Source: a virus
Taxonomy: Duplodnaviria > Heunggongvirae > Uroviricota > Caudoviricetes
Virus record (IMG/VR): IMGVR_UViG_2526164602_000012
Length of the DNA stretch: 18,442 nt
Reading direction: 5' to 3' (one strand)
Shown piece by piece: positions 15,001 to 18,000 of this stretch. How positions within the stretch are numbered: position 1 is the first letter of the stretch; the number at the start of each line of letters is the position of its first letter. A program made the position numbers.

Positions 15001-18000
15001 AAAACAATACTATTAAATACAAAGCGTTGTAAAAAAACGCCCCGTTTTAGAACAAATTGTATTGACCAAGTTAAGTACATATCGTACTATTTAACCATCA
15101 GCAGGACGCTGGAAGCCAAATGGAACAGACTGGCAGGCTCTTTAAACAACGTCGACTCTCGACTACGTGGCTGAAAAGCCAGATCACCCAACCACATAAG
15201 CTGTGGGATGCAATGCCGAAGCAACCGTCTCAGGAGGAGCTTCGAGATTGCATCGCCAAAGTTTATTCGGGAGGAATCTATGTCCAGAAAAACAGAATTT
15301 AAAGGCACCGCAGCTTCTCGCCGTAGAGCTCGTCGCGCAAACCTGCAAAGTCAGGAGGCGATTAGCTCCGACAAACTACACAGGCCAACCCCATCACGAG
15401 TGGTCTTACAATGCAAACGCAAACCAGCAATGAGAGCAGAAGTAATAACACTGACAACGTTGACCAGAAAATATGAAGGCTCAACTTGTCTTCCAAATGT
15501 AGCTCTTTACGCGGCAGGCTACCGTAAATCCAAACAACTGACAGCAAGATGACTTGTGTTGGTCGCCAGAAAATGAAATTAGGCAGCAAACCACTTATTT
15601 GAGGTGATATATGGAATTTCATGAAAGTGCGATTTGTGATTTTCGCGCTAACGCAAATTCAGTAAAACCACAGCCAATTGCAGTTCTTTTTAAAACAATG
15701 GGTGCGTGGGCTGTTTTATGCTTCGCCGCTGACGACACTGACGCAAGAATGGCAATAGGACAAGAGATGGAGATGGACCCGACAAACGATGAATTCATAA
15801 TTTATGGCGCTCCATCTAATTACTTACTTGATACCTGCAACATTTACAACAAGGCTGTGAACCGCCCCGGAAATCCTGGAGACTAAACTCCCTGAGAAAG
15901 AGGTAAACAGGATGACTAAAAATACTCGTTTTTCCCCCGAAGTCCGTCAGCGGGCGATTCGTATGGTTCTGGAAAGTCAGGATGAATATGACTCACAGTG
16001 GGCGGCAATTTGTTCCATTGCCCCAAAGATTGGCTGTACGCCGGAGACTCTGCGTGTCTGGGTTCGCCAGCATGAGCGGGATACCGGGGGCGGTGATGGT
16101 GGGCTCACCAGCGCTGAACGTCAGCGTCTGAAAGAGCTGGAACGTGAAAATCGTGAACTGCGCCGCAGTAACGATATCCTTCGCCAGGCTTCCGCTTATT
16201 TTGCGAAGGCGGAGTTCGACCGCCTCTGGAAAAAATGATGCCACTGCTGGATAAGCTGCGTGAGCAGTACGGGGTCGGACCGGTATGCAGCGAACTGCAT
16301 ATTGCCCCGTCAACGTATTACCATTGTCAGCAACAGCGACATCATCCGGATAAACGCAGTGCCCGTGCGCAGCACGACGACTGGCTGAAGAGAGAGATAC
16401 AGCGCGTATACGATGAAAATCATCAGGTGTACGGTGTGCGTAAAGTCTGGCGTCAGTTGTTACGGGAAGGAATCAGGGTGGCCAGATGTACAGTGGCACG
16501 TCTCATGGCGGTTATGGGACTTGCCGGTGTTCTCCGGGGTAAAAAGGTCCGTACGACCATCAGCCGGAAAGCCGTTGCCGCAGGCGACCGCGTAAACCGT
16601 CAGTTCGTGGCAGAACGACCTGACCAGCTGTGGGTGGCTGATTTTACTTACGTCAGCACATGGCAGGGCTTCGTCTATGTGGCGTTTATCATTGATGTGT
16701 TTGCCGGATACATCGTGGGGTGGCGGGTCTCATCGTCTATGGAAACGACATTCGTGCTGGATGCGCTGGAGCAGGCGTTGTGGGCCCGTCGTCCGTCTGG
16801 CACCATCCATCACAGCGATAAAGGCTCTCAGTATGTGTCACTAGCCTATACGGAGCGACTAAAAGAAGCCGGATTACTGGCATCAACAGGGAGTACAGGC
16901 GACTCGTATGACAACGCGATGGCTGAGAGCATCAATGGTCTTTACAAAGCGGAGGTAATACACCGTAAGAGCTGGAAAAACCGTGCAGAAGTGGAACTGG
17001 CCACACTAACGTGGGTGGACTGGTATAACAATCGACGATTGCTGGGAAGGCTGGGCCATACTCCTCCGGCAGAAGCAGAAAAAGCTTATTATGCTTCCAT
17101 CGGAAACGATGATCTGGCAGCCTGAGTTCACAGATAAAACACTCTCCAGGAAACCCGCGGCGGTTCACTGCCTGATGGTGGCCTTTATTTTTGGCATAAA
17201 CAACAGAATAAACACAGCACTGTGTATTCATTCCAACGAGTGAATACACGGAGCAATGTCGCTCGTAACTAAACAGGAGCCGACTTGTTCTGATTATTGG
17301 AAATCTTCCTTGCCCTCCAATGTGAGGGCGATTTTTTTATCTGTGAGGATATGAACAGATGTCAAACATCAAAAAAATACATCATTGATTACGACTGGAA
17401 AGCATCAATAGAAATTGAAATCGACCATGACGTAATGACAGAGGAAAAACTTCACCAGATTAATAATTTCTGGTCAGACTCTGGATACCGACTCAATAAA
17501 CACGGCTCTTTATTAAATGCTGTATTAATCATGCTGGCGCAACATGCTCTGCTTATAGCAATTTCAAGCGACTTAAATGCATATGGTGTTGTGTGTGAGT
17601 TCGACTGGAATGATGGAAATGGTCAGGAAGGATGGCCTTCAATGGATGGTAGCGAAGGAATAAGAATTACCGATATCGATACATCAGGAATATTTGATTC
17701 AGATGATATGACTATCAAAGCCGCCTGAGCGCGGCGTTACCGCATACCAATAACGCTTCACTTGAGGCGTTTTTCGTATGTATAAATAAGGAGCACACCA
17801 TGCAATATGCCATTGCAGGGTGGCCTGTTGCTGGCTGCCCTTCCGAATCTTTACTTGAACGAATCACCCGTAAATTACGTGACGGATGGAAACGCCTTAT
17901 CGACATACTTAATCAGCCAGGAGTCCCAAAAAATGGATCAAACACTTATGGCTATCCAGACTAAATTCACTATCGCCACTTTTATTGGCGATGAAAGATG

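Follow-up and report, generated by a model that had tools for sequence, protein, structure and literature searches.

The antitermination gene N in IMG/VR virus record IMGVR_UViG_2526164602_000012 (Caudoviricetes) ends beside what looks like the tail of another N protein, which raises the question of whether this gene has been broken or whether two phage modules have been joined at this point. The window, by which we mean the whole stretch of 18,442 nucleotides (nt) that was analyzed, carries an N whose translation ends in YRKSKQLTAR before a TGA stop at 15550..15552, and across that stop a second reading frame continues through ...SKMTCVGRQKMKLGSKPLI, whose last 17 residues are identical to the lambda N C-terminus at 11 of 17 positions in a local alignment. 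A first-pass annotation of this DNA had reported both features, had pointed out that one A added after 15532..15534 would give an N of 107 codons, and had offered as explanations either a frameshift that removed the RNA-polymerase-binding tail of N or a mosaic recombination joint inside the 3' end of the gene. Our translation, alignment, and arithmetic (85 + 22 codons) bear out the observations themselves. As to their explanation, we conclude with a probability of about 0.9 that N has no lesion here and that 15550..15616 is instead a short island, conserved among phages, which marks a mosaic boundary of the lambdoid type.

Several lines of evidence locate the joint. With 15500-15900 as the blastn query, the matches of Phage 21 (Lambda imm21), HK544, mEp043, and HK542, at 98-100% identity, begin no earlier than query position 51, which is 15550, the T of the N stop. 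For Lambda_2G7a, PhiR11_1, and ev066 the match is limited to query 1-53 and so stops at 15552, the last base of the stop codon, and for HK630 it is limited to query 1-49; these four phages share the C-terminal module of the window N and have other right-hand neighbors. Identity to phage 21, counted per 10 nt, steps from 3/10 to 10/10 at 15550, and on either side of 15550..15616 it is no higher than in random sequence (1-4 of 10), which places the right-hand joint at about 15617. Phage 21 reads GGT GTG ACT TGT across the left joint, and the stop of the window N is the TGA within GTGACT, so that three bases serve at once as the final triplet of the N module on the left and as the beginning of the phage-21-type segment. 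In 933W and HK97, where the last arginine codon is AGG, the shared stretch is GTGA. Side-by-side comparison of these sequences shows a joint with 3-4 nt of microhomology that falls exactly at the stop codon. The earlier suggestion of a mosaic joint was therefore right in kind, but the joint sits at the stop codon and not inside the N 3' end, and the donor is of the phage 21 type.

What follows the stop is a relic of the end of a phage-21-type N gene. Its frame, in which codons start at positions divisible by 3, is -1 relative to N; it contains a TAA at 15525..15527, is open from 15528, and reads IQTTDSKMTCVGRQKMKLGSKPLI up to a stop at 15600..15602. The relic and the phage 21 N C-terminus agree at 15 of 17 amino acids (aa), and the window and phage 21 agree at 66 of the 67 nt of 15550..15616 (E = 6e-24 in blastn to Lambda imm21), with HK544 100% identical. 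On these comparisons the similarity of the tail is far beyond chance and its true relative is phage 21 N, not lambda N; the likeness to lambda noted earlier is real, and a nearer relative exists. The N tails of phage 21 and lambda follow the pattern …G(V/I)TC(V/S)GRQKIK…PLI, and the relic is the last 51 nt and stop of phage 21 N with one mismatch, the HK544-type allele being identical to it. In phage 21, lambda, HK544, and similar phages this segment is in frame and forms the end of N, whereas in the window it lies past the N stop in the -1 frame. The relic allele of the window, …GRQKMKLGSKPLI, is the same as the commonest in-frame allele: this 59-nt allele is the commonest in-frame N tail among the IMG/VR matches listed. 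Within the relic there is an incidental open reading frame (ORF) of 17 codons (15549..15602), the ATG of which (15549..15551) overlaps the N stop as ATGA; the overlap is GTGA and not ATGA in 933W and HK97. The 51 nt of the relic are now most probably an untranslated spacer, a harmless leftover at a recombination joint that is common in Shiga toxin phages and other lambda-like phages. A diverged relic allele, GTAAGCTGCACCGTTCACCAG… (which reads VSCTVHQKMKLGSKPLI), occurs at one IMG/VR locus (L042) after an N end of TAR-TAA and differs from the common allele mostly by conservative changes in the tail frame, which suggests that it came from another in-frame N tail and did not arise by decay in place. 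Neither the gene nor the genome nor a feature of this kind is new, and the relic is a routine consequence of lambdoid mosaicism; a literature search on N mosaicism in HK97, phage 21, and 933W, outside of which Plunkett et al. 1999 fell, yielded the general idea of boundary sequences and no published description of this particular relic.

The N gene itself is intact and not truncated. Its product, MSRKTEFKGTAASRRRARRA…NVALYAAGYRKSKQLTAR, matches the Pfam family PF25694 (N_peptide) at 111.3 bits against a cut-off of 27.9 bits, with residues 1-90 aligned to positions 5-100 of a profile of 100, and is assigned to phrog_271, anti-termination protein N-like. Near the N-terminus, residues 13-20 form the arginine-rich motif SRRRARRA, the type of motif expected for binding of boxB RNA; the corresponding motif of H-19B N is 12-RSRRRER-18 (PMC3526286). 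The window N is 100% identical to the N of VT2-Sakai, whose record gives the same ORF this name, and of many Shiga toxin (Stx) phages. The identity of the N region is likewise 100% in VT2-Sakai, Stx2 II, 2851, and the PA-series and WGPS-series Stx phages; at least 80% of 15100-15900 is covered in 42 phage records, and at least 80% of 15470-15640 is present in 393 of 5426 complete E. coli genomes. Since so many phages, each sequenced independently, agree throughout this region, a sequencing error peculiar to this record is ruled out. In practical terms, these results guard against misannotation of N in VT2-Sakai-type Stx2 prophages, where the gene does not deserve the label of a frameshifted pseudogene. 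With regard to the start of the gene, public records such as that of VT2-Sakai (NP_050520) use an ATG 72 nt upstream (15208..15552, 114 aa), and the Pfam match together with a good Shine-Dalgarno sequence, GGGAGGA at 15270..15276, favors the 90-aa N that starts at 15280. Upstream of N, inspection by eye revealed a boxA-like sequence, GGCTCTTTAAACAA, at 15136..15149 and, at 15168..15181, TGGCTGAAAAGCCA, a 5-bp hairpin with a GAAA loop; together these elements (15136..15181) plausibly represent nutL for an N of the window type.

The end of the window N belongs to a module that recurs in other phages. N proteins that end in …LP(N/G)VA(I/L)YAAG(Y/H)RKSKQ(L/I)TAR, followed directly by a stop, are encoded by P22 (gp24), HK620, HK630, VT1-Sakai, Lambda_2G7a, 933W, and HK97, and beyond the stop these genes continue into four different sequences, namely sieB, hkaQ, the relic, and others. 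The module is common to otherwise unrelated N bodies. Its left limit is indicated by tblastn matches of P22-like phages, which are confined to residues 67-90 of the window N, and by matches of 933W-type E. coli prophages, which start at position 18 of the query 15470-15640, that is, at 15487. The window sequence CL71PNVALYAAGYRKSKQLTAR aligns with residues 107-127 of H-19B/933W N (the 933W record describes its N as similar to that of H-19B), such that L108 of H-19B N, the L of CLPNVA, corresponds to L71 of the window N. Work from R. Sen's laboratory has established that H-19B N is active in vivo and in vitro, that its C-terminal domain binds RNA polymerase, that deletions in this domain abolish antitermination at terminators distant from nut, and that loss of residues 121-127 is tolerated (PMC3526286); furthermore, L108F in this domain suppresses rpoC exit-channel mutants (PMC4499122). 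Judged by this alignment, the window N keeps an RNA-polymerase-binding tail, and that tail is of the other known type, the one found in P22 and H-19B.

Local DNA and protein alignments of the P22-type C-terminal module with the 3' ends of lambda and phage 21 N gave no similarity above that of shuffled sequences. It follows that the two C-termini are alternative, nonhomologous modules and that neither is a frameshifted version of the other; derivation of the P22-type module from a lambda/21-type 3' end by frameshift is ruled out on the same grounds. The window N belongs with the N proteins of P22 (gp24), H-19B, 933W, and HK97 (PF25694) by its arginine-rich motif, its full-length profile match, and the module CLPNVA(L/I)YAAGYRKSKQLTAR. 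Over its N-terminal and central parts, however, identity to H-19B/933W N is only about 40%, and outside the last 24 residues it is unrelated to P22 gp24. Such divergence is consistent with a different nut specificity. A further case is provided by the N of VT1-Sakai (L011 503..775), which is identical to phage 21 N (L002, Lambda imm21, 454..753) for ~190 nt (62 codons) and then continues with the P22-type module. This comparison presents the exchange of C-terminal modules directly: a second mosaic joint lies within N, where its central part meets the end that binds RNA polymerase.

The surroundings of the island in other phages show how widely its parts have been combined. Searching IMG/VR for exact matches to the 26-nt core GGCAGCAAACCACTTATTTGAGGTGA yielded at least 120 loci, and among the matches listed, to which all of the following counts refer, 122 instances had enough flanking sequence to be classified. 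These fall into at least 7 left contexts, at least 9 right contexts, and at least 29 combinations of the two. A P22-type N end with the tail out of frame precedes the core in 45 instances (L0); the tail is in frame behind a 21-type N in 22 (L1) and behind a lambda-type N body with a 21-like tail in 30 (L2). In 15 instances an ~85-nt relic of the N 3' end follows an inserted gene and terminator (L4), in 1 the tail stands after another sequence (L6), and in 9 only the last ~26 nt remain after an extra small gene (L3 and L5). The joint of a TAR-ending N with the relic occurs behind three N bodies (Sakai-type, H-19B-type, and HK620-type), and in 42/42 of the IMG/VR loci with this arrangement the relic is out of frame; an in-frame fusion of a TAR-type body with the tail was found in none of the 122 instances.

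The constant part of the island is the stretch directly upstream of the ATG of the next gene. In 122/122 instances the core is followed by nATATG and a gene, even where only ~26 nt of the island are left, and where an extra gene stands after N only these last ~26 nt, with the Shine-Dalgarno sequence and the ATG, remain before the next gene. Short relics of this type (the last ~26-34 nt with Shine-Dalgarno and ATG) lie behind an extra small gene in Sf6 (L010 701..734) and at two IMG/VR loci (L098 and L038); the small genes inserted after N are Sf6 gene 36, an hkaQ-like gene, and a 47-aa ORF, and they appear to have entered while the ribosome-binding site of the next gene was kept. At two other loci (L100 and L128), ~800 nt upstream of the island, there is a phage-21-like N with a third type of C-terminus, …IYYKDSNPLGNKIHAVQKIKLYSKLPYGAY. 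Behind this N come a 112-aa gene of unknown function and a hairpin plus T run that resembles a terminator; an ~85-nt remnant from the 3' end of a 21-type N then leads into the island. The arrangement resembles a moron insertion in which part of the N end was duplicated.

By these properties the island behaves like a lambdoid boundary sequence, an idea for which PMC3029335 cites Clark et al. (2001, HK620) and the modular theory of Susskind and Botstein (1978). As in other such sequences, a conserved patch of ~30-67 nt runs from the end of one gene across a Shine-Dalgarno sequence to the start codon of the next, with unrelated flanks and many left and right combinations. The island of the window differs in being partly coding in some phages, where it forms the end of a 21/lambda-type N, and a noncoding relic in others. 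Neither a promoter-like nor a terminator-like site was found in the island. The locus is a clean, textbook-style instance of lambdoid mosaicism in which two nonhomologous C-terminal modules of N have been swapped between phages, and the recurrence of a 30-67-nt patch of N end, Shine-Dalgarno sequence, and ATG between varied neighbors fits the boundary-sequence model of module exchange. It leaves the understanding of antitermination unchanged.

We propose that a P22-type N module, bringing its own stop at TGA, was joined to a 21-type genome by illegitimate, microhomology-guided recombination at (G)TGA, and that the join fell 51 nt before the end of the N gene of the donor phage. The product would have survived because it lost neither the N stop nor the region where translation of the following gene begins: the 3' portion of the island, …CCACTTATTTGAGGTGAnATATG, would retain its phage 21 role and equip the pL operon gene that follows, here orf20, with a Shine-Dalgarno sequence and a start codon, and orf20 is probably translated from this ribosome-binding site. 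The island is nearly identical in many lambdoid phages with differing neighbors and therefore offers a homology patch for reassortment, such that homologous recombination may later have exchanged N and downstream modules through it; the distribution of contexts suggests that recombination may initiate within the island. The sequences themselves show that N is intact, where the joint lies, what the relic is, and between which neighbors it recurs; the order of events, including the part played by microhomology, we infer from this arrangement.

Some points weigh against this interpretation. The relic has no inactivating mutation and equals the commonest functional in-frame allele. Its first codon, which shares bases with the N stop as ATGA in the window and as GTGA in 933W and HK97, could serve as a start, and the 17-aa relic peptide may be translated, although nothing supports that it is. 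Copies of the relic are too alike, both to each other and to in-frame alleles, for a selection test on the peptide frame. Moreover, the roles that we ascribe to the island, as the ribosome-binding site of orf20 and as a recombination substrate, are suggested by its position and distribution.

The alternative that takes up these points most directly is that ribosomes terminate and reinitiate at the ATGA overlap with N and so produce from the relic a 17-aa peptide of its own, MTCVGRQKMKLGSKPLI, which would act in trans, for example on RNA polymerase. The start codon overlaps the N stop in the window, with GTGA at the same place in 933W and HK97, and the 17-codon ORF is intact in 42/42 of the listed loci that combine a TAR end with the relic; if true, this reading would account for the preservation of the ORF in all phages that have the joint. 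However, the start codon can be accounted for as a by-product of the joint, in that G/ATG arises from the last base of an AGR arginine codon and the TG of TGA, and the same AGA/AGG codon is present in the relic-free N genes of VT1-Sakai, 2G7a, P22, and HK620. There is no Shine-Dalgarno sequence upstream of the ATG at 15549, other contexts trim the island to its last ~26 nt and so destroy the ORF while keeping the downstream ribosome-binding site, and the near-identity of the copies to in-frame alleles suffices to explain the intact ORF. The last 14 residues of lambda N are reported to be dispensable, according to work cited in PMC3526286, so that the peptide would correspond mostly to a nonessential segment. 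We consider production of such a peptide very unlikely, and it is slightly less likely again that this extreme C-terminus of a 21/lambda-type N, made at (A/G)TGA, modulates RNA polymerase or N-dependent antitermination in trans.

The view that N is a frameshifted or missequenced gene, descended from a 107-aa ancestor that ended in the in-frame tail, …GRQKMKLGSKPLI, and bound RNA polymerase in the lambda manner, has two points in its favor: the open tail frame shares 24 codons' length with the 3' end of N, and a single extra A yields exactly the length of lambda N. Yet the hypothetical fusion reaches only position 94 of PF25694, at 101.2 bits, compared with 100/100 and 111.3 bits for the N that is actually encoded, and KQLTAR before a stop is the conserved native end of the family, with several different sequences downstream. 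The same C-terminus is a functional RNA-polymerase-binding domain in H-19B N (PMC3526286, PMC4499122). The phage 21 homology does not start before 15550, between the proposed frameshift site and the stop there are 22 nt unrelated to phage 21 N, not one in-frame fusion exists among the listed instances, and the sequence is identical in many independently sequenced phages. The first-pass annotation had itself named homologous N proteins with KQLTAR ends and the same downstream sequence as evidence that would tell against a frameshift, and these are present in 933W, HK97, and at least 42 IMG/VR loci. Loss of the RNA-polymerase-binding tail by frameshift is refuted by the native TAR end, the full Pfam match, the function of the H-19B C-terminal domain, and the identical phages, and we regard this view of N as highly improbable. 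Programmed -1 ribosomal frameshifting near the end of N, which would produce a minor long isoform with a lambda/21-type tail, could make use of the fact that the tail is in the -1 frame and that 7 open codons of this frame (15528..15549) precede the N stop. But this interval contains no X XXY YYZ slippery heptamer, its sole lysine codon standing in C AAA C; downstream RNA structure is not significant (z = -0.97 for 15535..15640), Rfam has no family at 15500-15620, and the sequence before the stop differs at several positions in 933W and HK97, such that there is no conserved shift site. To this last possibility we assign almost no weight.

Table. Features at the 3' end of N and in the adjoining island, with positions in the window
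Feature	Coordinates	Strand	Basis or remark
Antitermination gene N, 90 aa plus stop	15280..15552	+	Translation, Pfam, PHROG, blast identity
P22/H-19B-type C-terminal module of N, CLPNVALYAAGYRKSKQLTAR then stop	15487..15552	+	Shared N ends, tblastn, E. coli prophage matches
Mosaic joint at N stop TGA	15550..15552	+	blastn match edges, side-by-side sequences, identity step
Relic of last 51 nt plus stop of phage-21-type N gene, …TCVGRQKMKLGSKPLI then stop	15550..15602	+	-1 frame relative to N, after N stop
Conserved island (boundary sequence)	15550..15616	+	67 nt; phage 21 identity inside, unrelated flanks
Shine-Dalgarno GAGGTGA (15601..15607) and ATG (15611..15613) of next gene	15601..15613	+	Sequence; kept in every context; Shine-Dalgarno overlaps relic stop codon
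orf20, phrog_2471, function unknown	15611..15886	+	Next gene after N; last codons altered by IS629 insertion

Downstream of the island, the window carries an insertion sequence (IS) of the IS629 type, 1310 bp long (15858..17167), with orfA at 15912..16238 and orfB at 16235..17125, flanked by a 3-bp target duplication, CTG, at 15855-57 and 17168-70. Its insertion at 15858 alters the last codons of orf20, which encodes 83 aa in VT2-Sakai and 91 aa here. A match to the Rfam ALIL pseudoknot at 16193..16309 is the frameshift element of the IS. Other Rfam matches at the gathering threshold lie at 1012..1223, 2634..2874, 6456..6539, 7454..7639, and 17787..17845; the families are STnc100 (- strand), three tRNAs (-), sRNA-Xcc1 (-), C4 antisense RNA and isrK (-), and the lambda cIII thermoregulator (+), and these matches fit what the early and late regulatory region of an Stx prophage would contain.

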